Positions 28,596 to 43,394 of a stretch of DNA of 64,000 bases are shown piece by piece. The notes beneath the pieces are model-generated. The model saw only the letters and a program-made list of their open reading frames with translations, ran no database searches and was not told the origin of the DNA. This stretch comes from Pseudomonadota bacterium (GTDB lineage Bacteria > Bdellovibrionota > FAC87 > UBA2466): assembly GCA_043767805.1 (NCBI GenBank), contig JAYUGC010000053.1, forward strand, positions 15,064 through 79,063, in the 5' to 3' direction. The first letter of the stretch is position 1, and each line of letters opens with the position of its first letter. Position numbers and translations under genes: made by a program.

Positions 28596-29594
28596 TTACG
28601 CCCATTCGTGTTTGAGATCGCGGCTCATGAGCTCGGAGACCGCTCTTTGAGGCGTGCTGCCTTCGTACAGAATTCGATATACCTGATCCATGATCGGCAT
28701 GTCGATGCCCCGGCTCGCGGCAAGTTCGTGCGCCGACTGCGCGGTGTAATAACCTTCGGCGACACCGCCCAAAGCTTTCTGCGCTTCTTCCAGACGTTTC
28801 CCCTCGGCAAGTAAAACGCCGAGCTTCCGGTTACGACTCAAAGGACCCGTGCAGGTCAAAACTAAATCGCCCATCCCGGCGAGTCCCAGGAAAGTGCGCG
28901 GATCGGCGCCGAGTTGTTTTCCGGCGCGCGCCATCTCGGCGATGCCGCGGTTGATGATCGCGGCTTGTGCGTTGTAGCCAAGCTGAAGGCCGCTCACCAT
29001 GCCGGACGCAATCGCAATCACGTTCTTCAAAGCGCCCGCGAGCTCAACCCCGATGACGTCCTGGCTCCAGTAAGCGCGAAAGTAAGGCGTCGCCATCATC
29101 TTCTGCAAATCACCCGCGAGTTTTTCATCGCGGCACGCGACGGTGACCGCGGTGGGAAGCCGCTTCACGGTTTCCAAAGCAAAGCTAGGTCCGGAGACGA
29201 TGAGATATTTCGCTTCCGGAATGATCTCCGTGAAAATCTCGCTTACCCGCTTGTGAGTTGCGATCTCGATGCCCTTACAAGTATTGACGATGTTTTTACC
29301 CGAGACCTGGGCCGCGATGGGCCCAAACACGTTTCGGATTTGCTGAGTGGGAATCGCGCAGACGATCCAAGAGGTCGTGGCAATGAGCGCGTTGAGATCC
29401 GTCGACGCTTTCAGCGTTTCATTGAGCCGGAGGCCCGCGAGGTATTTCGGATTTTCGTGGCGCTCATGGATCGAGCGGGCAAGTTCCGCGTCCCGGCTCC
29501 AGAGCGTTACCGGGTGACCCGCGTCGGCGAAAACATTCGCCATCGCCGTTCCCCACGCTCCTGCTCCGACGACAACGACTGGCTGCTTATCCAT
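28596..29594 (-). CDS. gpsA: NAD(P)H-dependent glycerol-3-phosphate dehydrogenase
   Basis: VVVVGAGAWGTA Rossmann motif; KGIE and GPSFA motifs. Confidence 0.85.
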   Translation of the reverse strand: MDKQPVVVVGAGAWGTAMANVFADAGHPVTLWSRDAELARSIHERHENPKYLAGLRLNETLKASTDLNALIATTSWIVCAIPTQQIRNVFGPIAAQVSGKNIVNTCKGIEIATHKRVSEIFTEIIPEAKYLIVSGPSFALETVKRLPTAVTVACRDEKLAGDLQKMMATPYFRAYWSQDVIGVELAGALKNVIAIASGMVSGLQLGYNAQAAIINRGIAEMARAGKQLGADPRTFLGLAGMGDLVLTCTGPLSRNRKLGVLLAEGKRLEEAQKALGGVAEGYYTAQSAHELAASRGIDMPIMDQVYRILYEGSTPQRAVSELMSRDLKHEWA

Positions 29595-29786
29595 TTATGC
29601 GCCTCCCAAGAGATCGAATGTGAAGATTAGCCTACGCATCTGGGGGTGGGCAAAGTCATCTTTCGAACGGGCGGAATCCTGCCGTAAAAAGCCCAGAAGC
29701 CGGGGTCCGGGAAAACCTGGGCCCCGGCATTCCCCATTCCTCGTCGACACATCACGGCAAACCCGCGAAAACACAGCATCTCAGGC

Positions 29787-29816
29787 TTGACAATAACCTT
29801 AACCGGACGATAAGGT
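29787..29816 (+). promoter_or_regulatory. candidate sigma70-type promoter upstream of nuoA (TTGACA-18 nt-TAAGGT)
   Basis: -35 box TTGACA at 29787-29792, 18-nt spacer, -10-like TAAGGT at 29811-29816, about 50 nt before the nuoA TTG start. Confidence 0.3.
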
Positions 29817-29866
29817 CTCGTCGTTAATTTTTAATTTCAACTACTTAGCCGCGGAGCTGTCACCTG

Positions 29867-30271
29867 TTGGAAACTGGATACATCACGGTCTTCTGGTTCG
29901 TGGTTTTCTCCTGTTTGACCGTTCCTTTGATGTTGGGAATCGGCTGGATCCTACGGCCGAAGCACACGCCCAAGGGTAAAGAAGCGCTTCCCTACGAGTG
30001 CGGCGAAGAGCCGACCGGTCCCGCCTGGGTACAGTTCAACATTCGCTTTTACGTGGTCGCCATCGTCTTCCTCATTTTCGACGTGGAGCTCGTGGCCCTT
30101 TATCCGGCGGCCGTTCTCTATAAGGACGCTATCAATAACGGCACCGGGGCTTTGGTTTTCGCAGAGATTTTCCTGTTCGTGGGGCTCCTCCTTGTGGGCC
30201 TCCTCTATTGTTGGGTTCGTGGAGACTTGGAGTGGGTTAAGGGCATCATCAAGATCGCCCCCCAGAAATAA
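29867..30271 (+). CDS. nuoA: NADH-quinone oxidoreductase subunit A (TTG start)
   Basis: 3 TM helices; ECGEEP and FDVEL motifs. Confidence 0.85.
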   Translation: METGYITVFWFVVFSCLTVPLMLGIGWILRPKHTPKGKEALPYECGEEPTGPAWVQFNIRFYVVAIVFLIFDVELVALYPAAVLYKDAINNGTGALVFAEIFLFVGLLLVGLLYCWVRGDLEWVKGIIKIAPQK

Positions 30272-30274
30272 CCA

Positions 30275-31420
30275 ATGGTACAAAGCGCAGCCTTTGCACA
30301 GTCCCTGCAGACCTGGGTGGGCCTCGGCCCCCTGTGGATGTGGGCCGCCCTTTCGGCCTTACTGATCATCTATCTCTTGGCTCTGCCGTTCGGCGGTTTG
30401 GCCACGTACGTAGAGCGTAAGGTTTCGGCCGACATGCAGGACCGCATCGGTCCGAACCGGGTCGGTCCCCTCGGCATCCTGCAGTTTCTCGCCGACGCCG
30501 TGAAAATGATTTCGAAGCAGGATTTCGTTCCGCCCGACGGCGATCGCTTCCTGTACGGCCTCGCCCCCATTCTGGTGGTCGGCGGCGTTTGCTCGGCCTT
30601 CGCCGTGCTTCCCCTCAGCCAGTACTTGATGGGCGCGGATATCGACATTGGCGTCTTCTACATGTTCGCCTGCAGCACCATCGTGGCGCCCGGCATCTTG
30701 CTCGGCTCCTGGTCGTCTGCGAACAAGTGGTCGCTTCTCGGAGGCCTTCGCGCCGCCGCTCAAATCGTCAGCTACGAAATCCCGGTGGCGCTTGCCATCG
30801 CGCCCATCATCTTGATCTCGGGCTCTCTTCGGGTCGGCAGCATCGTCGAGCAGCAAGGCTGGATTTGGTCGGGCGAAAACCCGTTGAACGCCCACTTCTG
30901 GAACGTGTTTCACAACCCGTTCTGCTTCGTGGCCTTCTTCCTCCTTTTCATCTCAGGCCTCGCCGAAACGAACCGCATTCCCTTCGACTTACCGGAAGCG
31001 GAATCGGAGCTCGTCTCCGGCTTCAACACGGAATTCTCCGGCATGCGCTTCGGCCTCTATGCCTTGGGCGAGTTCTGCGAAGTGTTCGTGATGTGCGCCC
31101 TAGCCGTCGCGCTTTATCTCGGCGGCTGGCATCTGCCCTTCTTAAATCTCGATGCCCTCTGGATCAAGCTCCCCACGGGACTCATCGCGCTCATTCAGTT
31201 CACGGTTTTCATGGCCAAGGTGCTCTTCCTGGTTTTCGTGGTCATGTGGTTGCGCTGGACTTTGCCCCGCCTTCGGGTCGACCAGCTCATGGGTTTCTGC
31301 TGGAAGGGTCTCGTGCCCTTGTCTCTCATCAACCTGCTCGGCACCGCGGTTTGGATGTGGGTGTTTCACAACAAATCGCTTATCCAGCTCGTTCTCGGCG
31401 CTGGCGGCGGGGGACACTGA
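30275..31420 (+). CDS. nuoH: NADH-quinone oxidoreductase subunit H
   Basis: YVERKVSADMQDRIGPNRVGP, GWSSANKWSLLGGLRAAAQ and ETNRIPFDLPEAESELV motifs. Confidence 0.9.
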   Translation: MVQSAAFAQSLQTWVGLGPLWMWAALSALLIIYLLALPFGGLATYVERKVSADMQDRIGPNRVGPLGILQFLADAVKMISKQDFVPPDGDRFLYGLAPILVVGGVCSAFAVLPLSQYLMGADIDIGVFYMFACSTIVAPGILLGSWSSANKWSLLGGLRAAAQIVSYEIPVALAIAPIILISGSLRVGSIVEQQGWIWSGENPLNAHFWNVFHNPFCFVAFFLLFISGLAETNRIPFDLPEAESELVSGFNTEFSGMRFGLYALGEFCEVFVMCALAVALYLGGWHLPFLNLDALWIKLPTGLIALIQFTVFMAKVLFLVFVVMWLRWTLPRLRVDQLMGFCWKGLVPLSLINLLGTAVWMWVFHNKSLIQLVLGAGGGGH

Positions 31421-31423
31421 TTT

Positions 31424-31942
31424 ATGTCGGATTCGGCAAAGCTTATCCTGCTCTTCGGGCAAATTCTGACCGTCGGCTCGGCGATCGTGGTGGCCATCCA
31501 CCCGAATATCCTCTACGCGGCGGTGGCGTTACTCTCGACGTTTCTGGGCGTGGCCATTCTCTTCTTGTTTAGTGGCGCGGACTTCGTGGCGGGCGCTCAA
31601 GTGGTGGTCTATGCGGGCGGTATCACCATCCTCATCCTCTTCGCCATTATGCTCACGCAGTGGCTCTATAAAGTTAAGCTGCGCGATTACGGCGCCAGGC
31701 TTCTGGTCCCAGCCGTAGTGGCTCTCGGCGTCTTTCTCGTCGTCTACCGCTCCACCGCGGAGCTCGGTAACTGGGCGCTAAAAAACGCGCCCACTGAAGC
31801 GGTCGACAAGTTCGCCTTCCTCCCGAAAACGGCCCTCATCGGTCAGGCGTTTCTCGGCCCGTACCTTTTAGCCTTTGAAGCGGTAACCATTCTCTTATTG
31901 GGCGCGCTCGTCGGAGCGGTCTGGCTGGCGAGGCCTAAATGA
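31424..31942 (+). CDS. nuoJ: NADH-quinone oxidoreductase subunit J
   Basis: 172 aa, 5 TM helices, NuoJ-like (VVYAGGITILILF). Confidence 0.8.
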   Translation: MSDSAKLILLFGQILTVGSAIVVAIHPNILYAAVALLSTFLGVAILFLFSGADFVAGAQVVVYAGGITILILFAIMLTQWLYKVKLRDYGARLLVPAVVALGVFLVVYRSTAELGNWALKNAPTEAVDKFAFLPKTALIGQAFLGPYLLAFEAVTILLLGALVGAVWLARPK

Positions 31943-32262
31943 ATCTTTTGAACTGGGCCACGGGCCTGCACGGCTACCTCTGGGTCAGCACGGCGCTCTT
32001 CGCGCTGGGCGTCCTCACCGTTTTGTCCCGCAAGAACGCCATCGGAATCCTGCTCGGCGTCGAATTGATTTTGAACGCGGCGGCCATCAACTTCGTGGCC
32101 TTCAGCCGTTTTCGCACCGGCGCCGTCGACGGACACATGGTGGCTCTTTTCATCATTTTGGTGGCGGCCGCTGAAGCTGCGGTCGCGCTCGCGATTATCT
32201 TGAGGCTCTACCGCCTCCGTCAGACGGTCGATACCGACGAGGCGACCCTCTTAAGGAACTAA
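31939..32262 (+). CDS. nuoK: NADH-quinone oxidoreductase subunit K
   Basis: 107 aa; conserved Glu in GVELILNA and in AAAEAAV. Confidence 0.85.
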   Translation: MNLLNWATGLHGYLWVSTALFALGVLTVLSRKNAIGILLGVELILNAAAINFVAFSRFRTGAVDGHMVALFIILVAAAEAAVALAIILRLYRLRQTVDTDEATLLRN

Positions 32263-32264
32263 CC

Positions 32265-34322
32265 ATGGCGCAAACTTGTCTGCTCATCGTGCTGCTTCCG
32301 CTCACCGCCTTCGTAGTGCAGGTGTTCTTCGGTAAGCGCTTGCCCCGCCAAGGAGACTGGGTCTCCATCCTGGCCATCGCCGGTTCGCTCTTTCTCGCTT
32401 TCCCGATTTTCACGGCTTTCCTCAGCACGGGTAACCTGCACGACACCTTGCAGACCACCTGGATGTCCCTGCCCATTCAGGTCTCCGGACACGGCGGCAT
32501 GTCGTCTTTCGACATCGTCATCGGCACGCTGGTCAATAACCTGACCGCCATCATGCTGTTTATGGTCACGCTCTGCGCGACCCTCATTCATATTTTCGCA
32601 AGCTCCTACATGCACGGCGAGCCCCGCTACCACCTTTTCTTCGCGTACATTTCGCTCTTCTCGGCGGCAATGCTGGGCTTGGTCGTCTCGGACAACCTGC
32701 TCACCTTCTTCATCTGCTGGGAGATCATGGGCCTTTGCTCCTACTCCCTCATCGGCTTCTACTACGAGAAGCCGTCCGCGAACGTGGCGAGCCTCAAAGC
32801 GTTCATGACCACTCGCGTGGGTGATTGCTGCTTCTTCCTCGGTATCTGCGGCTTGTACTTCCTGTTCGGCACTTCGAACTTCGAGCAGATTTATCAAAAC
32901 CTCGCGATGCCCGAGCTCGCGGGACGCACCATCTTAGGGATGCCGGCCTTGGCCTTCATCGGCTTTATGCTGATGATGGGCACCATCGGTAAATCGGCGC
33001 AGTTCCCGCTCCACATCTGGTTGCCGGACGCGATGGAAGGCCCGACACCCGTCTCGGCCCTCATCCACGCGGCCACCATGGTGGCCGCCGGCGTGTTCCT
33101 GCTCATTCGCACCTTCCCGCTGCTTCAAGCCGCGGAAATCGTGCTTCCGGTCATCGCCTACATCGGCGCGTTCACGGCGCTCTTTGCGGCGACGATTGCC
33201 CTGGTGCAGGTCGACATCAAGAAGGTGCTCGCCTACTCGACGATTTCTCAGCTCGGCTTCATGGTGTTCGGTGTCGGCGTCGGCGCTTTCGCGGCGGCTT
33301 TCCTCCACCTTCTCACCCACGCCGTTTTCAAAGCTTGTTTGTTCCTCGGCTCGGGTAGCGTCATCCACTCCGTTCACACGAACGACATGCGCGAAATGGG
33401 CGGCCTGCGCACCAAGATGCCTTGGACGTTCCGCACGATGCTGATTTCCACTTTCGCCATCAGCGGCTTGCCCTTCTTTTCGGGCTTCGTCTCGAAAGAC
33501 CGGATTCTCGCCGGCGCACTTGCTTACGGCATGGAACATCCGCAACACATGCTCGTGCCCATCTTCGGATTCACGGCGGCGGGCCTCACGGCGTTTTACA
33601 TGTTCCGCCTGATCTACCTGACGTTCTTCGGCCACGCGCGGGACGAGCACAAGCACCACCACGCGCACGAGTCGAGCCCGGTCATGACGGTGCCGCTCAT
33701 GATCCTAGCCACCCTCTCGTTTGCGATTTGGTACGCGGGCCCCACGGGCATCGAGTTTATCGATCACATCCTTCCGGTCCGCTGGTACGACATCGGCATC
33801 GCGAACGTCATGGAGTCGATGCACATTCACGCCGCCCACGGCGACGAGCACATCCATCACCTCGCCCACAACCTGGCGCTCATTTTGTCGCTCTCCATCG
33901 CGGGCGCGGGCATCCTGCTCTCGACTTTGATGTACCTGAAAAAGGTAATCTCGCCGGACGCTATCCAAAAGCGTCTTTCGGCCGTGCACAAAGTGCTTTG
34001 GAACAAGTATTACGTCGACGAGCTCTTCATCGGCATCGGGATTAAGAAGGGTCTTTTGACCTTCAACAACCTGCTCGCCCGCTTCGACGACTTGGTCGTG
34101 GACCGGATTTTCGTCGACGGCTGGAAAGATATCGCCATGGCCGTTAAGTCTGCGGTGAACCAGTTCGACAATATCGTCGTCGATAAGGGCCTCGTGGATG
34201 GAACCGCGTACGCGGTTTCCGCCGGCGGTTGGATGATCCGTCAGTTTCAGACCGGTCAGGTGCAGACGTACCTCGTTTGGACCTTGGTCGCTCTTGGCAT
34301 CTATTTGGTACGCGTTTTTTAA
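32265..34322 (+). CDS. nuoL: NADH-quinone oxidoreductase subunit L
   Basis: 685 aa; GKSAQFPLHIWLPDAMEGPTPVSALIHAATMVAAGVFLLIR; C-terminal long-helix region WNKYYVDELF. Confidence 0.9.
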   Translation: MAQTCLLIVLLPLTAFVVQVFFGKRLPRQGDWVSILAIAGSLFLAFPIFTAFLSTGNLHDTLQTTWMSLPIQVSGHGGMSSFDIVIGTLVNNLTAIMLFMVTLCATLIHIFASSYMHGEPRYHLFFAYISLFSAAMLGLVVSDNLLTFFICWEIMGLCSYSLIGFYYEKPSANVASLKAFMTTRVGDCCFFLGICGLYFLFGTSNFEQIYQNLAMPELAGRTILGMPALAFIGFMLMMGTIGKSAQFPLHIWLPDAMEGPTPVSALIHAATMVAAGVFLLIRTFPLLQAAEIVLPVIAYIGAFTALFAATIALVQVDIKKVLAYSTISQLGFMVFGVGVGAFAAAFLHLLTHAVFKACLFLGSGSVIHSVHTNDMREMGGLRTKMPWTFRTMLISTFAISGLPFFSGFVSKDRILAGALAYGMEHPQHMLVPIFGFTAAGLTAFYMFRLIYLTFFGHARDEHKHHHAHESSPVMTVPLMILATLSFAIWYAGPTGIEFIDHILPVRWYDIGIANVMESMHIHAAHGDEHIHHLAHNLALILSLSIAGAGILLSTLMYLKKVISPDAIQKRLSAVHKVLWNKYYVDELFIGIGIKKGLLTFNNLLARFDDLVVDRIFVDGWKDIAMAVKSAVNQFDNIVVDKGLVDGTAYAVSAGGWMIRQFQTGQVQTYLVWTLVALGIYLVRVF

Positions 34323-34339
34323 GGTGATGTGAGGAAACT

Positions 34340-35842
34340 ATGCTTAGTTGGATGACCTTTACCCCCCTTCTGGGGATGGCCGTCGTTCTTGCTCTCCCCA
34401 AGGAGAAGCACAATTTAATCCGCTGGACGGCACTCGTGACGTCCTTGATACCGCTCGGCTTCGCCGCGGTCCTTTTCATGCACTTCGACCGCACGACGGC
34501 GGCGATTCAGTTCGTGGAACGGGTTTCGTGGATTAAACCCTTTAACATCGAATACTACATGGGCGTCGACGGCCTGAGCATTCCGATGATTCTGCTGACC
34601 GCCCTACTCACCGTCATCTGCATCATCGCCTCGTGGACCATCGACTACGCGGTCAAAGGCTACTTCGCCATGTTCCTGATGCTGGAATGCGCCATGCTCG
34701 GCGTGTTCATGGCTTTGGACTTCTTCCTCTTCTTCATCTTCTGGGAAGCGATGCTGCTCCCGATGTACTTCCTAGTCGGTATCTGGGGAGGCCAGAACAA
34801 GGTCTATGCGGCCATCAAGTTCTTCCTCTACACGCTGTTCGGCTCCGTCTTGATGCTGATCGCGATGCTGGGCTTTTATTACTACGGCGGCCAGAGCTTC
34901 GATCTCATCAAACTCGCGGCGACGCATCCGTTCGCGGGTCAGACGATTGCCCTCTTCGGCTGTCAGATGCCTCTCGATAAGTTCTTCTGGGTGATGCTCT
35001 TTATCGGCTTCGCCATCAAGGTTCCCGTGTGGCCTTTCCACACCTGGTTGCCTTGGGCGCACGTCGAAGCCCCGACGGCGGTCTCGGTCATTCTGGCCGG
35101 CGTGCTGCTTAAGATGGGAACGTACGGCATCCTGCGCATGAACTTCCCGATCCTTCCCGAAGCGACCATGTGGGCCTCGAACGCCATGATGATCTTGGGC
35201 GTGATCAACATTCTCTACGGAGCCTTCTGCGCGATGGCGCAGAAGGATCTGAAAAAGCTCGTCGCTTACTCCTCCGTTTCCCACATGGGTTACGTGATGA
35301 TGGGCATGGCGACCTTTACGGTGGCCGGCGTGAACGGCGCCGTTCTCCAGATGTTCAACCACGGTACGTCGACGGCCATGCTCTTCCTCTTGGTCGGCGT
35401 GATCTACGACCGCGCTCATCACCGCTGGATCGTGCGCCCCGACGGCTCGCGCGGCTTCGGCGGTATCGCCGCGGTCGCTCCCGTGTACACGGCGATTTTC
35501 GCGGTGGCGCTGTTTGCGTCCCTCGGTCTTCCGGGCTTGTCCGGGTTCATCAGCGAAGCGCTGATCTTCCTCGGCGCCTTCTCGGTTCCGAAGTACCAGA
35601 CGCTCACCGTATTCGGCGCATTCGGCATCTTACTCGGCGCCGCGTACCTCCTCTGGATGTTCATGCGGGTGTTCTTAGGTCCCTTGAATCCCGAGTACGC
35701 GAACTTGGAAGACATGAACTGGCGTGAGCGAGGCATGCTCATTCCGCTTTGCATTCTCGTCGTGCTTTTCGGCGTCTATCCCATGCCGGTATTGAACTTG
35801 ATGGGAGCGACGGTCGCAAAGCTCCTGACTTACTTTTCGTGA
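34340..35842 (+). CDS. nuoM: NADH-quinone oxidoreductase subunit M
   Basis: FWEAMLLPMYFLVGIWGG, AIKVPVWPFHTWLPWAHVEAPT and GVLLKMGTYG motifs. Confidence 0.9.
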   Translation: MLSWMTFTPLLGMAVVLALPKEKHNLIRWTALVTSLIPLGFAAVLFMHFDRTTAAIQFVERVSWIKPFNIEYYMGVDGLSIPMILLTALLTVICIIASWTIDYAVKGYFAMFLMLECAMLGVFMALDFFLFFIFWEAMLLPMYFLVGIWGGQNKVYAAIKFFLYTLFGSVLMLIAMLGFYYYGGQSFDLIKLAATHPFAGQTIALFGCQMPLDKFFWVMLFIGFAIKVPVWPFHTWLPWAHVEAPTAVSVILAGVLLKMGTYGILRMNFPILPEATMWASNAMMILGVINILYGAFCAMAQKDLKKLVAYSSVSHMGYVMMGMATFTVAGVNGAVLQMFNHGTSTAMLFLLVGVIYDRAHHRWIVRPDGSRGFGGIAAVAPVYTAIFAVALFASLGLPGLSGFISEALIFLGAFSVPKYQTLTVFGAFGILLGAAYLLWMFMRVFLGPLNPEYANLEDMNWRERGMLIPLCILVVLFGVYPMPVLNLMGATVAKLLTYFS

Positions 35843-35850
35843 GATGATGC

Positions 35851-37338
35851 ATGGCTAATCTGCTGTTGAACTTGAAGCTCTTTGGACCCGAAGCGACCCT
35901 GGTGGGTCTCTTGGTCATCCTCTTTCTGGTGGACGGCTTTCTGCCGAAATCCCGGGAGAGCTTCTTGCCGCTCTGCCTGGTCGCCTTGGCTTCGGCCTTC
36001 GCGGCCTACATCACCTGTCAGCTGAACGTCGCCCCGGCGACCTTCTTCACGGGTCTTGTGGCGAACGACGGGTTCTCGGCTTTTTTCCGCTACATCTTCT
36101 TGTTCACGCTCGTTGCGGGACTCTATTTGGCCTATGGCTCCAAAGAAGTGCCCAAAGACGCCCGCATCGAGATGTCGCTGCTCCTCGTTTGCGTGACTTT
36201 CGGCATGAGCCTCATGGCCATTGCCTCGAACCTCTTGATGCTTTGGCTCGGCGTCGAAACGGTGAGTATCGTGTCCTTCGTGCTGGCGGGTTTTCGCCGG
36301 GACAACCTTCGCTCGAACGAAGCGTCCTTCAAGTACTTGGTCTACGGAAGCTTGGCTTCCGGACTCATGCTCTACGGCATGAGCCTCATCTATGGATTCG
36401 CGGGAAGCCTCTACTACGCCGACCTCAGCAAGTACTTCATGCTGCATTCGGGTGAGCTTCCCTACACTTTGGCGCTCTCCCTCCTTTTGGTGTTCGCGGG
36501 TCTCGCGTACAAAGTGTCGGCATTCCCGATGCACTTCTGGACCCCGGACGTTTACGAAGGCGCCCCCACTCCGGTGGCGGCGTTTTTCTCGGTAGGTCCC
36601 AAGGCGGCGGGATTTGCGGCCCTCATGCGCATCTTCCTCGACGTCTTTTCGTTCAAGACGGGGCCGCTTCAGTGGCATTCCGTCGAAGGCATCGCGATTC
36701 CCCACGGCTTGGCCATCATCGCGGCGCTCACCATGATCGTCGGTAACCTTTCCGCGCTCGGACAGACCAACGTGAAACGCATGCTCGCCTACTCGAGCAT
36801 CGCCCACGTCGGTTACATGCTGGCGGGTCTCGTGGCCTTAAATAGCGCGGGCATCACGGCGGTTCTCTTCTACATCGTCGCTTATTGCGGCATGAACCTC
36901 GGCGCTTTCTGGGTAGTGAGCGTCGTCACCGATCGGCGCGGCAACGAAGATCTCGAGGCTTTCCGCGGCATCGGCGCGAAGACGCCGCTGCTCGGCATCT
37001 GCATGGCGGTCTTTCTCTTTTCGCTGACCGGTTTGCCCCTTTTCTCCGGCTTCATTGGAAAGTTCCTGCTTTTTGGCGCCATTTTGCAGACTCCGGGCTT
37101 CCTATGGCTTGCGCTCATCGGCGTCTTGAACAGCGTCGTTTCGCTCTTTTATTACGTCCGGGTGCTGAAATCCATGTGGCTGGATAGTCCCGCGGCCGGA
37201 GACACCGGAGCGGTCGCGCTTCCGCTCTACCATGCGATTCCGCTCCTGGGCCTCGCAATCCCAACCATCATTCTCGGCCTCTTTTTCACGCCCATTTTCG
37301 AGTTCGCGCAGCGCTCGGTCGCCGCCTTCCTCAACTAG
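35851..37338 (+). CDS. nuoN: NADH-quinone oxidoreductase subunit N
   Basis: LWLGVETVS, AYKVSAFPMHFWTPDVYEGAPTP and KRMLAYSSIAHVGYML motifs. Confidence 0.9.
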   Translation: MANLLLNLKLFGPEATLVGLLVILFLVDGFLPKSRESFLPLCLVALASAFAAYITCQLNVAPATFFTGLVANDGFSAFFRYIFLFTLVAGLYLAYGSKEVPKDARIEMSLLLVCVTFGMSLMAIASNLLMLWLGVETVSIVSFVLAGFRRDNLRSNEASFKYLVYGSLASGLMLYGMSLIYGFAGSLYYADLSKYFMLHSGELPYTLALSLLLVFAGLAYKVSAFPMHFWTPDVYEGAPTPVAAFFSVGPKAAGFAALMRIFLDVFSFKTGPLQWHSVEGIAIPHGLAIIAALTMIVGNLSALGQTNVKRMLAYSSIAHVGYMLAGLVALNSAGITAVLFYIVAYCGMNLGAFWVVSVVTDRRGNEDLEAFRGIGAKTPLLGICMAVFLFSLTGLPLFSGFIGKFLLFGAILQTPGFLWLALIGVLNSVVSLFYYVRVLKSMWLDSPAAGDTGAVALPLYHAIPLLGLAIPTIILGLFFTPIFEFAQRSVAAFLN

Positions 37339-37341
37339 CCT

Positions 37342-37367
37342 CTTAAAAGATACGCCGTACCTTTTAG
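37342..37367. repeat. imperfect palindrome CTTAAAAGATACG/CCGTACCTTTTAG 4 nt after the nuoN stop (copy 2 of the recurrent motif)
   Basis: Read directly; shares the CTTAAAAG(G/A)TAC core with 4999-5018 and 60861-60887. Confidence 0.7.
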
Positions 37368-37406
37368 GACGACGGGGAATGGGTCCGACCGTATAATTCG
37401 GGAACT

Positions 37407-38045
37407 TTGAGCTCCTATTTTTCTATCGGACTCTCGGCCTTGTCTATCGCCGGAGGCGCCGTGGTTTTACTCAGTCATGGCGGGCGTATGCTCGCGGGCG
37501 GCTGGGCACTCACCTGCTTCTCGCTCTCGATCCTCGCGCTACTGCAACCCGGGCCGCCTTGGCTCTTGGCTCTCTTAATCGCCGGGCTCGCCGTCAGTCT
37601 CGGCCTGTCGCTTGCGGTGCTCGCTTCGGAATCGCTTCCCGGGTTCTTGGACGGAAACGTTCGCAAAATTCTCGCGGTATTCGCGGTCTGGGCAATCAGC
37701 CTCTTCATCCTTCGCTCGTCCCATGCCTCGCACCTCCATGGCGCGGCCGAGACCTATTGGTCGCTCTATAGTACGGCCGCCCTTTTCGGGCTGGGGTTAC
37801 TCACCCTCATCCTAAAGCGAGACGCCGTGCAAGTATGGAGCGGGGTGGGCCTTTTACTTTTAAGTCCCTTACCCACTTCGCTCGCTTCGGCCGCGGGGCT
37901 GCAATCGGGAGACGGCTGGCTACTATCGCTACTTTGTGGCGCGCTTTGCGCCGTGCACGGCGCATTCGCGATAGTGGTACTCGGACGCGTCAGCCGCCGG
38001 GAAGGCTCTCTCGACGTCAAAACTTGGGAGGAGCTTCAAGGGTGA
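37407..38045 (+). CDS. degenerate NuoJ'/NuoK'-like fused membrane protein (TTG start)
   Basis: The C-terminal half aligns to the adjacent NuoK (STAALFGLGLLTLILKRDAV vs STALFALGVLTVLSRKNAI), but the conserved Glu of GVELILN reads GVGLLLL. The N-terminal half has a weak NuoJ-like pattern (GGAVVLLSHGG vs GSAIVVAIHPN). About 6 TM helices. Confidence 0.55.
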   Translation: MSSYFSIGLSALSIAGGAVVLLSHGGRMLAGGWALTCFSLSILALLQPGPPWLLALLIAGLAVSLGLSLAVLASESLPGFLDGNVRKILAVFAVWAISLFILRSSHASHLHGAAETYWSLYSTAALFGLGLLTLILKRDAVQVWSGVGLLLLSPLPTSLASAAGLQSGDGWLLSLLCGALCAVHGAFAIVVLGRVSRREGSLDVKTWEELQG

Positions 38046-38992
38046 TTGGCTTTCAACACACTTGGTGGCGCATCGCGAGCTTCGACATCCTCTGTAGCTG
38101 GTACGCCGATAAATTTGATCTAGCCGCGCTCTTTGCCGTCTTCGCGCTGACCGTGCTGTGGGCGGCTCGCCAGCCTCGGGCCACGTGGGCCGCGGTAGTG
38201 TGGTTTCTGGCGACGGGCGCGCTTTGCGGCGCGGGAAACGCCTTCACGCTCATCTCCGCCTGGATGCTGGGAACCGTCGCGACCCTCGTCCTCTTTCACG
38301 CAAGCAGCGAGGGAAATCAACGCGGGCTATATACGTTCGCCCTGGCCGGTGCGCTTGCCGACGTTTTGCTTTTCTTGGGCTACCTGCTCTACGGCGGCAC
38401 TTACCGAGACAGCTTTCTTCCTACCGAAGAACAATTTTTAGAAGCGTCCGTGGCTTTGACGACGTTTCCTGCAAAGGCCTTTGCCCTAAGCGCGCTACTC
38501 GCCGTCTTAGCACGCCTCGTTATCGGCGCGGGAAGTCTTTGGCTTCCCGGCGAGCCGCAACTTCAAGCAAGAGAGTTCTTGGCGCAAAGACTCGCCGTAC
38601 TGCTCTTACCCTGCGTGATGCTACTCGATAAGCTCAGCTTTCTTAAAGCGGACGCCTCGGAAGGGGCGGTTCTCACCGTGCTAGTTCTTTCGATCCCCGC
38701 CATCTTGGGCGGTGCTTTTCACGCCATGAACCGGCCTTTCCCTTGGTTTCTCAATCCGGCCAAATGGTTCGACGAGCTCGTGCAAAAACCGTTGCGCTCT
38801 CTCATCGGCTTCTTCGACCGCAGGCTCGAAGCCCGCACCTTCGATGCCATTTTGATTCTGCCCACCCGGCTCGCGCGGGCGGGAGGCGTTTGGATTTCGC
38901 TCGTTCAGTCGGGTTCGCTCGCCTCTTACCTTACGTTTTCCGTACTGGGAATGGCGGCGCTTTTTGCCTGGGCACTGTGGGGAGGCAAATGA
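38042..38992 (+). CDS. degenerate NuoL'-like protein retaining N-terminal TM helices and the C-terminal long-helix region but lacking the antiporter core
   Basis: GTG start overlapping the upstream stop (GTGA). N-terminus has LVLFHASSEGNQRG, compared with LIHIFASSYMHGEPRY in NuoL. C-terminus has WFDELV...FFDRRLEARTFDAILI, compared with YYVDELF...RFDDLVVDRIFVDG in NuoL. Length is 316 aa against 685 aa for NuoL. Confidence 0.55.
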   Translation: MIGFQHTWWRIASFDILCSWYADKFDLAALFAVFALTVLWAARQPRATWAAVVWFLATGALCGAGNAFTLISAWMLGTVATLVLFHASSEGNQRGLYTFALAGALADVLLFLGYLLYGGTYRDSFLPTEEQFLEASVALTTFPAKAFALSALLAVLARLVIGAGSLWLPGEPQLQAREFLAQRLAVLLLPCVMLLDKLSFLKADASEGAVLTVLVLSIPAILGGAFHAMNRPFPWFLNPAKWFDELVQKPLRSLIGFFDRRLEARTFDAILILPTRLARAGGVWISLVQSGSLASYLTFSVLGMAALFAWALWGGK

Positions 38993-40506
38993 GTTACCTG
39001 CTTCCCTGGTTCTTTTATCTTCCGCTCATCGCCTTTGGCGCGGCGCTGCCTTTCTCGCTCGCTCTCTCCCGGCGAGTGGCCGGGGCGCTTGCGATCGTGA
39101 ACTTCCTTGCTCCGCTGACGTTTTATACCTTAGGCGACTCCGTGTGGCTCCAGACCCTGACAGGAATCACTTTCCAAAGCGGTCCCTTGCAACTTCAGCT
39201 CGATGCCTGGACGCTTCCCTTTCTGCTTCTCATCAAGCTCGCGGCCTTACTCGCCTTGAAACAACCTTCGGTCCGGCTGGGACGCACTCAGCTTGCCTGT
39301 CTTTTCGGAGCCGACTTTGCGCTTTCCGGGGCGCTATTTTCCACCGATGTTTTTGCCATCGTATTTTTCTCGCAGCTCGCCCTTGTTCCCCTTTCGCTGC
39401 TCATCGTGATCTGGGGCGGGCACGACCGGCTCTTCGCTTCGCGGAAGTTCTTTTTGTCTCAAACCGCGGGCTGCCTGCTTTGGCTCGTCGCCTTGGCGAT
39501 TCGCGCTTCCACTCACGAGTCTCAGTTCGGATATCCGAGCGGGCTCCCCGCGGATCTCGCCAAAGCCCTGGGACCGGCCGAGCTGACCGCTTTCGTCTGT
39601 TTTCTCCTGGGCTGTTTCCTTCGCTCCGCCGTGTTTCCGCTTCATAGCTGGCTGCCCGATACGCTGGCTCAAGCTCCCCTTTCGGCGAGTCTCCTTATCG
39701 TCGGTGGGCTGCTTCCTTCCGGCATTCTCCTGCTTCAGCGCGTGGGCCTTTCCGTTTTCCCGGCGGGCTTTGAGCGCGCGCAAAACCTGGGAACGGCCCT
39801 CGCGGTGTTCGGAGCGATTTACTCAGGGCTACTCGCCTGGCGGCAAAACGATAGCCGCCGCTACCTCGCCTTCGCGGCCAGTCTACTCATGTCGTTCGTT
39901 CTGGGAGGCGTGCTCATGGCGGGTCCGCTCACTTGGACGGCCAGCGCCTTTCTCCTCTGCGCGGGCTCACTCGCGAGTCTTGGCGTTTTGATTCTTTTCG
40001 AGTGGGCTTTTGAGCGCCAGAATAGCCGTCAGCTACCGGATTGGGCGGGGCTCGGGCAACAGAGCCCGCTCTTCCGCGGTTTTCTCGTATTCCTCACCCT
40101 GAGCGCGCTCACGCTTCCGGGCACCGCGGCCTTTCCTGGAACCTTCGCGCTTTTGACCGCCGCCATAAACCGCAACTTCATCTGGTGTGTAGGCTGGCTT
40201 GCCTCACTTTTCCTTTTGATGGCAAGTGCCGTGCGCCTGCTCGGTACGATTTCCTTCGGCACGCCTCGCCGCGGCCCGCTAGTCGCTGGATCCGATCTGT
40301 CGACGAGTGAGTCGTTGAGACTCTTGGCCCTTTCTCTGCTTCTTTTGGCTTTGGGCTGCGCTCCCGGTGGGTTTCTGGCTTCTTTAGAGCGGCCCATCGA
40401 GTCTTTCTGGGAAGCGAGTCCCGCGAAGGAGCGGTTCGTCTTTCCCGGAGACGAAGGCAAGAGCACCTTGCCAAGAGTCTTTCACCGGGATGAGGTTCCG
40501 CAATGA
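38991..40506 (+). CDS. degenerate NuoM'-like antiporter-family subunit
   Basis: ATG overlapping the upstream stop (ATGA); FAIVFFSQLALVPLSLLIVIWGGHDRLFASRKFFL aligns to [33 protein letters not shown] of NuoM; FPLHSWLPDTLAQAP aligns to WPFHTWLPWAHVEAP. Confidence 0.65.
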
Positions 40507-41891
40507 ATCCTTCTTCCGCGACTTTCTACGTCGTGGGCTTTCTCTTCGCGAGCGCGGTGCTAGCCGCGGCGGTTGCGCACTCACGGCGGCTTTCTCTTTA
40601 CCTTTCCGTTTTCGCTTTTGGGACGGCCGAGCTTGCGCTCGGCTGGCTCGCCGCTGGCAGAGTTGGCAACTGGCTTCCGCCCGTCGACTCCCGCTTTCTG
40701 ACCCTCTCGGGTTACCGCTTGGATGCGGCTTCGCTCCTTCTGCTTTTTTGTGCGGCTTCTTATTTACTGGTCCACGCGTTTGCCGAAGATGAGGTGAAAC
40801 GCGGAAGCTTGGGGCCGCTCTTCCTGCTTGCGGCGGCCGCGGGAATTTTATGCGCCGCCAGTGAGAACCTCTTAGTCACTTGCTTTGGCCTGGAGCTCGG
40901 CGCGCTTGCCGCCCACGGCATCACCGCCTTTCCCTCGCTCACCCGAGATCGGTTTGAAGCCCTCTGGAAACAGTATGCGTTCCATGGCCTGGGCACGGCT
41001 TGCCTACTTTTGGGCAGCGCTCTGTTTTACTCTCAGCTTGGCACTCTCGCTCTTACCGAAATTAGAGACACCCTTGCCGCCCAGCCGCCTTCGCCTTTCG
41101 TCACCGTGGCGTGTGTCTTATTGCTACTGGGCATCGCGGAGAGGCTCGGCGCGTTTCCCTTTCTCTCTTGGCCCGCCGACGTGACCGAAGGATCGCCATG
41201 GGGCGGGGTGTTTCTCGAAACGGCGGGACGCTTTATTTCGATCTGTGCCCTACTGCCGCTTTTCCTCGAAGCTCTGCTTCCGCTTCGGTCCGCTTGGGTG
41301 GGCCCGCTCTTCGTCATTGGCGGAGTCACTCTCGCGTGGGGCGCGCTAGGTGCGATCACGCAAACGAATCTGAAACGCTTACTCGCCTATTTAGGACAGG
41401 CGCACGTCGGGTGGCTACTTCTTTTTGCGGCGGCTTCCAGCGAACGAGGCAGCCTTGCCGGTCACTTTCTACCTTCAGCTCTCATCTTCGCCCTGGTCGC
41501 CCTCGGACTTCGCGCCGGTGTCTGTCTTTTGGAGCGCGAGGCAAATGACTGCGATATTTATCAGCTCTCGGGACTAGGAGAAACCCATCCCGTGCTCGCT
41601 CTGTGGTGGACGTTACTTTGCCTGGCCGGCGCGGGATTTCCACCGACCTCCGGGTTTGCCGCGCAAACGGCTTTCTTCCTGGAGCTCGGCTCGACCGGCC
41701 ACGTACTGCGCCTAATCGCCATCGGCGTGGGTTTATTGGCCGTGGCCTATTCTTACTTGAGAATGGTCGCTTACCTCTACGGCCGGGAATGCCGGGAGAC
41801 CATCGCGTTGACCCACCGGGCGGCGCTTCCCATCGCCTGCGCCTCGGCGTGCGCGATACTGGCGGTAGTGCTCCTCTTTTTCTGGCGCTAA
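40503..41891 (+). CDS. degenerate NuoN'-like antiporter-family subunit
   Basis: Overlaps the upstream stop; NLLVTCFGLELGA aligns to NLLMLWLGVETVS; AFPFLSWPADVTEG aligns to AFPMHFWTPDVYEG; KRLLAYLGQAHVGWLL aligns to KRMLAYSSIAHVGYML. Confidence 0.65.
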   Translation: MNPSSATFYVVGFLFASAVLAAAVAHSRRLSLYLSVFAFGTAELALGWLAAGRVGNWLPPVDSRFLTLSGYRLDAASLLLLFCAASYLLVHAFAEDEVKRGSLGPLFLLAAAAGILCAASENLLVTCFGLELGALAAHGITAFPSLTRDRFEALWKQYAFHGLGTACLLLGSALFYSQLGTLALTEIRDTLAAQPPSPFVTVACVLLLLGIAERLGAFPFLSWPADVTEGSPWGGVFLETAGRFISICALLPLFLEALLPLRSAWVGPLFVIGGVTLAWGALGAITQTNLKRLLAYLGQAHVGWLLLFAAASSERGSLAGHFLPSALIFALVALGLRAGVCLLEREANDCDIYQLSGLGETHPVLALWWTLLCLAGAGFPPTSGFAAQTAFFLELGSTGHVLRLIAIGVGLLAVAYSYLRMVAYLYGRECRETIALTHRAALPIACASACAILAVVLLFFWR

Positions 41892-42313
41892 CGAAAGTCA
41901 GAAGGAAGCTTTCCAGTCACTTTGCGAAACGCGTGAATGAATTGGGAGAGTGAGGAGTGGCCCACTTCGAGCGCCACGTCCGTCACGGAAGTGTCCCGCT
42001 TGTTTAAAAGACGTTTCGCCTTTTCCATCCGGCAGAAGAGCACCATCTGCTTCGGAGAAAAAGAAAGCTCGTCCAAACAAATCCGGTTGAGGCTTCTGAG
42101 GGAGAGGCCAGAGTGCTTCGCGATTTCTTCGACCGACAAAGGCTCTTTGAAGTTCGCTTCGATATAATCGACCGCGCGAGTGACACGAGCATCTTTGGCG
42201 AGCTCATGAAGTCGAAATGCTTTGCTCTCGCTCTCCTTGCTACCACGGCCTGCGCGGCCCAAAAGCCCGCGGTCTACACGTTCGAATCGGACAGGGGGTG
42301 GCTTTAACACCAA
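41888..42313 (-). CDS. AraC-family transcriptional regulator (HTH domain)
   Basis: LSVEEIAKHSGLSLRSLNR...DVALEVGHSSLSQFIHAFRKVTGKLPSDFR is the AraC C-terminal dual HTH; the N-terminal ligand domain appears short or absent. Confidence 0.65.
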   Translation of the reverse strand: MVLKPPPVRFERVDRGLLGRAGRGSKESESKAFRLHELAKDARVTRAVDYIEANFKEPLSVEEIAKHSGLSLRSLNRICLDELSFSPKQMVLFCRMEKAKRLLNKRDTSVTDVALEVGHSSLSQFIHAFRKVTGKLPSDFR

Positions 42314-42410
42314 AAACTATTTCTACGATAACGGAGAAGAAGTGGTGGCGTTCGATACGCAGTTCACGCCCGAGCTCGCGCGACAATCGATCAAGGTGAG
42401 TGCCCTTTTT

Positions 42411-43394
42411 CTATTCGGAGAAAAGCGCAGTATGGATTTTGCCGTCTTGGGTTACATACCCGCGGGGCATACCCGCCACGTTTCGGCTAAACGCCAAGTT
42501 ACCCTTCGGATCGAGAACGATCGCGCCGCCGTGGCCGTCCACGGGTTTGAGCTTTTGGAGTATCACGTCGTCGGCAGCCCGCGCGCCCGACCAATGTTTA
42601 TATTTCATCTGAGCACACACATCGTAAGCGGCCACGAACCGAATGAAGAATTCCCCGTGTCCGGTTGTCGAGATGGCGCATAAACCGTTTTCCGCGTATG
42701 TGCTGGCTCCGATGATGGGCGTATCGCCAACACGGCCATGCTTCTTGTTGACCCGTCCTCCCGTCGAAGTCGCCACGGCGAGATTGCCTTTTGCGTCCAA
42801 AGCCACGGCGCCGACCGTGCCTTTCGCGTCTTCAAGAAGCTTTCCCTCGGCCTCGCCCTGCTTTTTTTGAACTCGCTTTAACTCGTCCAGGCGCCACTGT
42901 GTCGAAAAATAGGAAGGCTCCACCAAAGTGAGGCCGACTTCTTTGGCTAGCTTTTCCACGGCGTCTCCGGCGAGAAAGGCATGGGAAGTGTGTTCCATTA
43001 CCGCGCGCGCCGCCGAAATGGGATTTTTCACGGCGGTCACTCCAGCCACCGAGCCAGAATTTCTCGTCCTGCCATCCATGATGGAAGCTTCTAACTCGTT
43101 CTTTCCTTCTTCCGTAAAAACGGCTCCCTTACCGGCGTTAAACAGAGGATTGTTCTCCATTACGATCACGGCCGCTTCGACCGCGTCCAGGCTTGAGCCC
43201 TTGGCTTTGAGCACGGCGTAACCCGCCGCTAGCGCCTCTGACAGACCTTGGTGATAGATCTTTTCTTTTTCCGGCGGAATTTTCTGATGATCGGCGGTGC
43301 CGCCATGGATGGCCAAAATCACCCGGGCCGCCGAATCCGCGCCGAAGCTGGAGAAGGTGAAGGTTAAAGCCGCGAGGAGAATCTTGGTTGCCAT
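42411..43394 (-). CDS. isoaspartyl peptidase / L-asparaginase (Ntn-hydrolase), secreted
   Basis: Signal peptide; Ntn-hydrolase motifs including the autoproteolytic GTVGAVALD site, HGG and GMPRG. Confidence 0.75.
   Translation of the reverse strand: MATKILLAALTFTFSSFGADSAARVILAIHGGTADHQKIPPEKEKIYHQGLSEALAAGYAVLKAKGSSLDAVEAAVIVMENNPLFNAGKGAVFTEEGKNELEASIMDGRTRNSGSVAGVTAVKNPISAARAVMEHTSHAFLAGDAVEKLAKEVGLTLVEPSYFSTQWRLDELKRVQKKQGEAEGKLLEDAKGTVGAVALDAKGNLAVATSTGGRVNKKHGRVGDTPIIGASTYAENGLCAISTTGHGEFFIRFVAAYDVCAQMKYKHWSGARAADDVILQKLKPVDGHGGAIVLDPKGNLAFSRNVAGMPRGYVTQDGKIHTALFSE

Follow-up and report, generated by a model that had tools for sequence, protein, structure and literature searches.

Does a NuoM-like gene located directly behind a complete membrane-arm operon encode one more proton-pumping subunit of complex I? 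This question is raised by a 64-kb stretch of contig JAYUGC010000053.1 (positions 15,064 to 79,063; hereafter the window) from a bacterium assigned to Bdellovibrionota. Downstream of a canonical nuoAHJKLMN operon (set 1), the window carries a module of four genes, p3-p4-NuoM'-NuoN', of which NuoM' is the third. Genes of the NuoM' type carry the label 'NADH-quinone oxidoreductase subunit M' in one source. Antiporter-like subunits are normally defined by a relay of Lys and Glu residues, and single relay mutations cripple complex I. NuoM' has lost these residues and is very probably non-pumping. The whole module is probably a structurally preserved 'pseudo-antiporter' remnant of the membrane arm of a second nuo set (set 2), kept by selection.

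Residue states and predicted fold of NuoM'

In the relay of E. coli NuoM, E144 and K234 form an ion pair, K265 is central, H322 bridging and E407 distal (PMC9271201). The numbering and roles of E144, K234 and K265 given in a preliminary description of the locus match this source. The positions were mapped onto NuoM' by HMMER alignment to the E. coli chain 3rko_M (E = 8.7e-24), by HMMER alignment to the P. denitrificans chain 8qby_M (E = 3.8e-31), and by MAFFT alignment with the NuoM of the window, set-2 NuoM of relatives and 49 canonical NuoM. The three independent alignments agree. E144 on transmembrane helix (TM) 5 corresponds to Gln129 (FFSQ versus FFWE), K234 on TM7 to Arg212, K265 on TM8 to Pro243, H322 to Leu300, H348 to Gly326 and E407 on TM12 to Thr385, and the H241 equivalent is Leu226. 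Arg and Pro at the TM7 and TM8 Lys sites had been read correctly in the preliminary description. At the TM5 site it had reported a Ser; the loss of the carboxylate stands, but the residue is Gln, one position further on. NuoM' is left without the TM5 Glu/Asp, the TM7 and TM8 Lys, the bridging His and the TM12 Glu. No substitute Lys, Glu or Asp was found near the replaced relay positions in the predicted helices.

Among the 183 NuoM-like proteins closest to NuoM', 161 carry E/D-K-K-E at the four main positions, and all four key residues are absent only from the three members of the NuoM' family and from one unrelated protein, P0042. Relay-less states are so rare that the losses in NuoM' are not due to chance. 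The degeneration is broad rather than surgical, preserving the fold and not the pump chemistry. Of the 87 alignment columns with at least 85% conservation in canonical NuoM, the three NuoM' sequences all retain only 26; these include PxHxWLPD, LPGxxxFxG and several loop Asp and Arg, whereas the central-axis residues are all lost. NuoM' scores 171.3 bits against TIGR01972 (NuoM), under the cut-off of 263.8 bits that both the NuoM of the window (581.4 bits) and M2, the set-2 NuoM, of the related contig L014 (566.5 bits) pass. Both NuoM' (101 bits) and NuoN' (120.4 bits) exceed the gathering cut-off of PF00361 (21.5 bits). Within NCBIfam, the NuoM family is nearest for NuoM' and the NuoN family for NuoN', both under the curated cut-offs.

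The AlphaFold2 (AF2) model of NuoM', built from a 47-sequence alignment, reaches a mean predicted local distance difference test score (pLDDT) of 89.2 and a predicted template-modelling score of 0.91. In this model the breaks in TM7 (residues 213–220) and TM12 (374–381) are kept, Arg212 lies at the end of TM7a, and Lys83, Asp109 and Arg212 are the only charged residues well inside the helices. A Foldseek search with the model returned NuoM, ND4 and NdhD chains first, with template-modelling scores (TM-scores) of 0.85–0.87 (8qby_M, 3rko, 9q8i_M). NuoM' is thus predicted to have the 14-TM antiporter-like fold of NuoM with discontinuous TM7 and TM12.

NuoN' was aligned by HMMER to 8e9g_N, 8qby_N and 3rko_N, and also with its orthologue on contig L011 and with canonical N1 and N2, the NuoN of sets 1 and 2. 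The relay of E. coli NuoN consists of E133/K217, K247 and K395 (PMC9271201). As had been described, NuoN' retains the TM5 Glu (Glu131) and has Arg at the TM7 Lys site (K217 to Arg214). The other replacements are H224 to Leu221, K247 to Arg243 and K395 to Gln388, so three of the four functional NuoN residues are missing. The score against TIGR01770 (NuoN) is 162.2 bits, under the cut-off of 332.6. With the NuoM relay gone, its loss persisting in orthologues down to 37% identity, and both proteins scoring under the NuoM and NuoN cut-offs, the earlier suggestion that canonical antiport is not to be expected here is well founded.

The two proteins are also poor in Lys and rich in Arg, with Lys/Arg counts of 6/25 in NuoM' and 3/22 in NuoN', compared to 15/11 in canonical NuoM and 13/13 in canonical NuoN of the same genome. 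The L011 orthologues, whose GC content is similar, show this shift too.

Descent of the module from a second nuo set

The nuoAHJKLMN cluster lies at one chromosomal site in all Bdellovibrionota studied, and predatory Bdellovibrionota possess a second nuo set that is 37.5–41.5% identical to the first (PMC13147790). The nearest named homologues of the set-1 NuoL in the window come from 'Deltaproteobacteria', Bdellovibrionaceae and Bdellovibrionales metagenome-assembled genomes. On the related contigs L014/L015, L025 and L026, whose set-1 NuoL are 65–68% identical to that of the window, the set-1 operon is directly followed by a complete tandem set A2H2J2K2L2M2N2 (in L025 no gene call covers A2, but it can be read), and M2, N2, K2 and L2 keep the canonical residues. 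On L012/L013 (73% identity), no second set is present at the site after nuoN.

The module proteins match their set-2 counterparts best, and the gene order is identical. NuoM' scores 166–182 bits to M2 versus 80–98 bits to M1, and NuoN' scores 102–123 bits to N2 versus 83–89 bits to N1. For p4, the E-value is 5e-10 to L2 versus 0.04–0.08 to L1, and for p3 the BLASTP E-value is 6e-8 to 5e-7 to set-2 NuoK versus 9e-3 to the NuoK (K1) of the window. In a search of 1.84 billion representatives, M2 outscores every protein outside the NuoM' family among the best 150 listed. Module and set 2 also have in common the C-terminal ELQG (p3 and K2), Lys83 (NuoM' and M2) and the lack of the 6-aa insert typical of M1. 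NuoM' had been taken as a paralogue of the adjacent NuoM; best hits and synteny instead identify it as a derivative of M2 within a set-2 remnant. It shares 26–30% identity with M2, while in genomes with M1 of about equal divergence M2 proteins share 56–59% with each other and M1 proteins 74–79%, indicating that the evolution of NuoM' has been accelerated.

The first two module genes could be assigned through set 2. Residues 120–212 of p3 are NuoK-like (K'; hhalign against a NuoK alignment, probability 93%, E = 3.8e-7), although the C-terminal match to Pfam PF00420 (NuoK) falls below the cut-off. At the NuoK Glu sites, p3 has Gly148 (Glu36) and His184 (Glu72). Its N-terminal part of ~119 aa contains about four hydrophobic helices and shows no similarity to NuoJ profiles. 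The TTG start and the N-terminus of p3 are conserved on contig L010. Residues 27–316 of p4 align with NuoL2 341–631 (hhalign, probability 96%, E = 5.9e-9), a stricter alignment covers residues 99–314 (probability 94%), and BLASTP aligns residues 237–297 with L2 548–612 at 41.5% identity (E = 5e-10). p4 thus matches the C-terminal part (~45%) of a subunit of the NuoL2 type, from about TM11/12 to TM15 with the lateral helix HL and TM16, and is devoid of the antiporter core TM1–10. The HL is of normal length (WFDE to QSG spacing of 46 aa in p4 and 50 aa in NuoL2), and the motif P[ST]RLARAGG is common to p4 and L2. No match to p4 was obtained in Pfam, NCBIfam or PDB sequences, including with a p4 profile. 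BLASTP against the NuoL of the window itself was not significant (E = 3.4); the relation is visible with set-2 NuoL and with profiles. Three full-length homologues of p4 were found, each of 316 aa. An assignment of p4 to NuoL TM4–7 plus HL, made by eye from AWMLG and CWEIMG, was ruled out by the profile-profile alignment to NuoL2 341–631.

Compared to the complete set 2, the window version is without A2, H2 and the antiporter core of NuoL2, and no NuoJ2 is recognizable, so that the module has no NuoA, NuoH or NuoJ of its own and no full-length NuoL. Taken at the level of sequence, the module is a set-2 derivative that has been truncated and evolves rapidly. A tblastn search of the window detected no other sequence resembling NuoL/M/N, NuoK or NuoJ, and no second nuoA or nuoH is present among its listed open reading frames (ORFs). 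A Pfam scan of the larger ORFs yielded none of nuoB, C, D, E, F, G or I.

The four module genes overlap successively by 4 nt, which indicates translational coupling. The ATG of NuoM' overlaps the stop of p4 (ATGA) and is preceded at 4 nt by a strong Shine-Dalgarno sequence, GGAGG. The gene had been given as 38991–40506; the end is correct, but the start codon begins at 38989, and 38991 is its third base. The module follows the set-1 nuoN on the same strand after a gap of 68 bp (37339–37406), in which a terminator scan found no terminator-like site. A promoter and terminator scan of 29400–42500 performed at chance level and is uninformative on separate transcription. The relay residues of the set-1 membrane-arm operon are intact in alignments. 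The synteny mfd-gpsA-nuoAHJKLMN is common to the window, L008, L012, L014 and L026, and L025 has the same nuoAHJKLMN operon with other genes upstream. The set-1 cluster of the window, L012, L014, L025 and L026 consists of membrane subunits only.

Conservation and selection

The closest relative of NuoM' is P0002 (62% identity), and the next match in a word-indexed search shares 31%. HMMER over the 1.84 billion representatives added one further NuoM' cluster, P0060 (322 bits), followed by canonical NuoM at 157 bits or less. The family is thus very rare, with two clusters in that collection, and GTDB species genomes and JGI metagenome contigs yielded no further orthologues, only canonical NuoM with ~30% identity. 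The orthologues at 62% and 37% identity are also without the relay residues. Among the three family members, the TM7 Arg and TM8 Pro are invariant, the TM5 position is Q, Q and F, and the TM12 position is T, A and T.

The gene order of the module recurs on every contig with a NuoM' family member, in six independent assemblies (Table 1). An assembly artefact was ruled out by an identical contig in an independent Logan assembly and by the modules in the five other assemblies. Complete orthologues have 504–507 aa for NuoM', 316 aa for p4 and 462–463 aa for NuoN'. The 4-nt overlaps of p3/p4 and p4/NuoM' are present throughout, and the NuoM'/NuoN' junction, a 4-nt overlap in the window, is a 1-nt overlap in two orthologues and a 22-nt gap in one.

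In the six assemblies, all module ORFs are uninterrupted by frameshifts or stop codons, down to 37–44% amino acid identity. Between the window and L010, the proportion of nonsynonymous differences (pN) is 0.14–0.17 and that of synonymous differences (pS) 0.56–0.64, and the ratio of nonsynonymous to synonymous rates (dN/dS) is roughly 0.11 for p3, 0.13 for p4 and 0.19 for the N-terminus of NuoM'. Canonical nuo genes give 0.05–0.15 in comparable pairs. Because pN is far below pS and the ORFs stay intact at such divergence, neutral decay is excluded, and the comparisons argue that the module genes are under purifying selection and are not pseudogenes. They evolve faster than the canonical genes, as seen between the window and L008, which share 89% identity in NuoM and 78% in NuoN versus 52% in p3 and 57% in p4.

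Table 1. Genes and key codons of the nuo region, other features of the window, and related gene clusters on other contigs
Feature	Location	Strand	Description
nuoA (set 1)	29867-30271	+	134 aa; ORF and Pfam
nuoH (set 1)	30275-31420	+	381 aa; ORF and Pfam
nuoJ (set 1)	31424-31942	+	172 aa; ORF and Pfam
nuoK (set 1)	31939-32262	+	107 aa; ORF and Pfam
nuoL (set 1)	32265-34322	+	685 aa; ORF and Pfam
nuoM (set 1)	34340-35842	+	500 aa; ORF and Pfam
nuoN (set 1)	35851-37338	+	495 aa; ORF and Pfam
p3 (K'-like fusion)	37407-38045	+	212 aa; TTG start
p4 (NuoL C-terminal clamp)	38042-38992	+	316 aa; GTG start overlaps p3 stop
NuoM'	38989-40506	+	505 aa; ATG 38989-38991, stop 40504-40506; PF00361
NuoN'	40503-41891	+	462 aa; start overlaps NuoM' stop; PF00361
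NuoM' Q129 codon	39373-39375	+	
NuoM' R212 codon	39622-39624	+	
NuoM' P243 codon	39715-39717	+	
NuoM' L300 codon	39886-39888	+	
NuoM' G326 codon	39964-39966	+	
NuoM' T385 codon	40141-40143	+	
AraC-type regulator	41888-42313	-	141 aa; helix-turn-helix
TLC ATP/ADP-transporter family protein	14094-15407	+	437 aa; PF03219, E=2e-19
Module, JGI 3300071358			p3-316-506-N'
Module, ERR12037361			nuoN-220-316-507-463
Module, L010 (Logan ERR15009264)	junction with glycosyltransferase gene at L010:1-1374		211-316-M'
Module, L011			p4-504-462
Module, L008			nuoA-N-187-p4...
P0042 pair	L016:6545-9692 and L017:1-2275		Logan SRR30894616 and SRR30894615

Comparison with known systems and possible roles

The module was compared with known assemblies of PF00361 proteins. 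It resembles NuoM/ND4 and NuoN/ND2 in the 14-TM fold with broken TM7 and TM12, in the K-L-M-N order and in the motifs PxHxWLPD and LPGxxxFxG, but differs in the relay (all replaced in NuoM', three of four residues in NuoN'), in the sub-cut-off scores, in evolving 2–3 times faster and in the lack of a NuoA or NuoH partner from its own set. With set 2 of Bdellovibrionota it shares position, gene order and the best similarity of each protein; set 2, however, is complete with canonical residues, whereas the window version has an unrecognizable J region fused to K' and an L2 reduced to a clamp. The 2M complex I of Nitrospira and Complex_I_3 of 'Ca. Manganitrophaceae' likewise have more than three PF00361 genes per nuo cluster, and the Nitrospira 2M type has a 26-aa HL insertion comparable to the ~27 aa in the set-1 NuoL of the window (PMC9040806, PMC6606698). 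The extra subunits of these complexes are canonical and thought to raise the pumping stoichiometry, unlike those of the module, which are without pump residues and have their own clamp. Mrp antiporters likewise stand alone in the membrane, combining NuoL/M/N-like with NuoK-like subunits and a lateral helix but lacking a redox arm, and solved MrpD chains align with the NuoM' model at a TM-score of 0.82. They differ from the module, in which no equivalents of MrpB/E/F/G were detected, the L-like subunit is without an antiporter core and the shared Lys and Glu are absent. In p3 and p4 no Pfam or NCBIfam match was found beyond the weak one to NuoK, and the flanking genes are not Mrp subunits. No DabA (PF10070) or CupA/CupB was found in p3, p4 or the neighboring genes scanned against Pfam. 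Marine actinomycetes (Salinispora, Streptomyces, Kocuria) have nuoAHJKLMN operons that are likewise membrane-arm-only sets without adjacent peripheral-arm genes, but these are complete seven-gene sets for which no relay loss or truncation is reported (PMC6676996). NuoM' is thus a member of the PF00361 superfamily with the predicted fold of NuoM, but without the sequence score and the relay residues by which NuoM is defined. It is not an Mrp or DAB subunit and probably not a 2M-type extra pump subunit. No description of such degenerate modules was found in the searched literature.

We consider it probable that an ancestral nuoA2H2J2K2L2M2N2 set, in tandem with nuoN, was reduced to p3-p4-NuoM'-NuoN' in this lineage. 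The connection to the quinone site (NuoA2, NuoH2 and a recognizable NuoJ2) and the antiporter core of NuoL2 would have been lost, and the Lys/Glu/His relay residues of K', NuoM' and most of NuoN' replaced by Arg, Pro, Gln, Thr, Leu, Gly and His. What would remain of the architecture is a pair of complete 14-TM antiporter-like folds in which TM7 and TM12 are broken, together with a three-helix unit like NuoK and a lateral helix that has its usual length and its TM16 anchor. In the proposed order, p4 would clamp a K'-N'-M' assembly as the helix HL of NuoL holds NuoM and NuoN. Such an assembly would be unable to relay protons by the mechanism of complex I or Mrp, and selection may maintain it because it serves the membrane structurally and not catalytically. 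In this genome, the module and the canonical set-1 arm are probably expressed together.

Several observations weigh against this reading. NuoN' keeps the Glu131/Arg214 pair, Arg243 and, in this genome, His301, and p3 has the invariant His184 at the NuoK Glu72 site, so some charge-dependent function is possible. In a neighbor-joining tree (100 bootstraps), the NuoM' clade forms a long branch that attaches outside all NuoM and not beside M2. This is probably long-branch attraction, and the case for a set-2 origin accordingly draws on gene order and position, on the best-scoring matches, and on indels and motifs common to both. For p4, AF2 with three aligned sequences gave an unusable model (pLDDT 42), so the clamp geometry is deduced from the p4 sequence. 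The dS values are near saturation (1.0–1.4), which makes the dN/dS values of the module rough. On L010, p3-p4-M' is preceded by a divergent family-2 glycosyltransferase gene instead of nuoN; the module is thus separable from the set-1 operon, and linkage to complex I is not obligatory.

The module lies on the same strand as nuoN, 68 bp 3' of it, and no terminator-like site separates the two. This could also mean that it docks onto the set-1 membrane arm or replaces part of it, as a 'gear' or spacer that lowers or modulates the H+/e- stoichiometry or fills a fourth antiporter-like slot, although we regard this as unlikely. The module likewise follows nuoN on L008 and on the ERR12037361 contig, the absent A2 and H2 are subunits that set 1 could supply, and the set-1 cluster has only one nuoM. 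The HL of the set-1 NuoL (aa 583–664) contains a 27-residue tandem repeat, FDDLVVDRIFVDG at aa 607 and FDNIVVDKGLVDG at aa 634, and the spacing from DE to Q[ST]G is 78 aa instead of 46–50 aa; the 26-residue insertion of Nitrospira 2M is taken as room for one more antiporter-like subunit (PMC9040806, PMC6606698). By this comparison with the 2M type, the insertion is present, but the sole extra NuoM-like gene in the 64 kb is the degenerate NuoM'. An HL extension specific to NuoM' genomes was ruled out, as it occurs in all five set-1 NuoL compared (window, L012, L014, L025 and L026), including that of L012/L013 without a second set after nuoN; the 78-aa spacing is found in the window and three relatives, and the 27-residue repeat recurs in the fourth. 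Most of the set-1-type NuoL homologues listed are also long (about 650–730 aa), whereas NuoM' occurs in only six assemblies. Autonomous assembly is the more economical reading, since the module has its own clamp as well as a K'-like unit extended by an N-terminal domain; on L010 it is not beside nuoN. Point mutations of the relay residues impede complex I catalysis and do not uncouple it (PMC9802314). More doubtful still is the specific proposal that the K'-L'(clamp)-M'-N' module, or NuoM' alone, fills the extra HL position of the set-1 NuoL or replaces the pumping distal arm; if true, non-pumping antiporter-like subunits would serve as spacers or brakes in a complex I that is regulated or 'down-geared' by nature.

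Two further explanations appear improbable, to a similar degree. The module might transport another ion or a small molecule, or form a passive channel, through the Arg-for-Lys exchanges and the Glu131/Arg214 pair of NuoN'. The TM7 Arg is invariant in NuoM' and NuoN' and the TM8 Arg in NuoN', new family-invariant polar residues have appeared (Glu338, a Gly in canonical NuoM; Arg285 in AWRQND; His184 of p3), and PF00361 proteins have been recruited to other chemistry, e.g., DabB. Arg, however, is effectively non-titratable. In NuoM' the TM8 Lys has become Pro and the TM12 Glu has become Thr or Ala, neither bridging His is left, and the helices are hydrophobic inside. The Lys-to-Arg shift runs across the module proteins in the style of a proteome and is not channel-specific, and no DabA/CupA or MrpB/E/F/G partner is encoded nearby. 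Among the roles offered in the preliminary description, altered ion specificity is the least supported, because the residue loss is global (26 of 87 conserved columns kept) and not targeted. The other explanation is a functionless relic of a lost second complex I, decaying toward pseudogenes. It would fit the absence of A2, H2 and most of L2, the strong acceleration (26–30% between NuoM' and M2 where about 56–59% would be expected), the faster divergence of the p3 and p4 orthologues, the extreme rarity of the family and the lack of set 2 at this site in the close relative L012. The selection data have already refuted this explanation for the most part: pN lies far below pS (dN/dS 0.11–0.23), no frameshift or stop occurs in six assemblies down to 37% amino acid identity, and lengths and most overlapping junctions are conserved. 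NuoM' also has its strong Shine-Dalgarno sequence and keeps fold-determining Gly/Pro/His/Trp motifs (PxHxWLPD, LPGxxxFxG).

As a non-pumping remnant, the module would be a natural experiment in which an antiporter-like fold is kept by selection without its proton-relay residues, and a clean case of a pseudo-antiporter from uncultured organisms. It bears on which parts of antiporter-like subunits are purely structural, such as the broken helices and the HL clamp, and on the re-use of complex I modules as non-catalytic membrane scaffolds or regulators. An evolutionary path from tandem second arm to truncated dead arm to loss could then be followed within one phylum. For annotation, metabolic reconstructions should leave the module genes out of the count of pump subunits.

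The module is flanked by genes for an AraC-type regulator, an asparaginase and a DUF885 protein. The regulator gene converges on NuoN', overlapping its last 4 nt, and is placed in the same way on contig L001. TLC ATP/ADP transporters (PF03219) are typical of bacteria that take nucleotides from host or prey, and one member of this family is encoded elsewhere in the window.

Degenerate PF00361 proteins seem not to be unique to this lineage. P0042, from an unrelated high-GC organism, is a 470-aa PF00361 protein whose gene is overlapped by that of a 580-aa membrane protein without a Pfam hit, away from any nuo operon. It has Leu at the TM5 position, Arg at TM7, Thr at TM12 and, depending on the alignment, Ala or Gln at TM8, and appears to be an independent 'dead' antiporter-like protein. 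About 17 of the 183 NuoM-like representatives closest to NuoM' deviate at one to three key positions. Partly degenerate examples among P0061–P0208, read from an automatic alignment, are P0179 (E-R-P-V), P0162 (E-R-T-N) and P0193 (I-M-K-Q), and proteins of this kind may be commoner than assumed.

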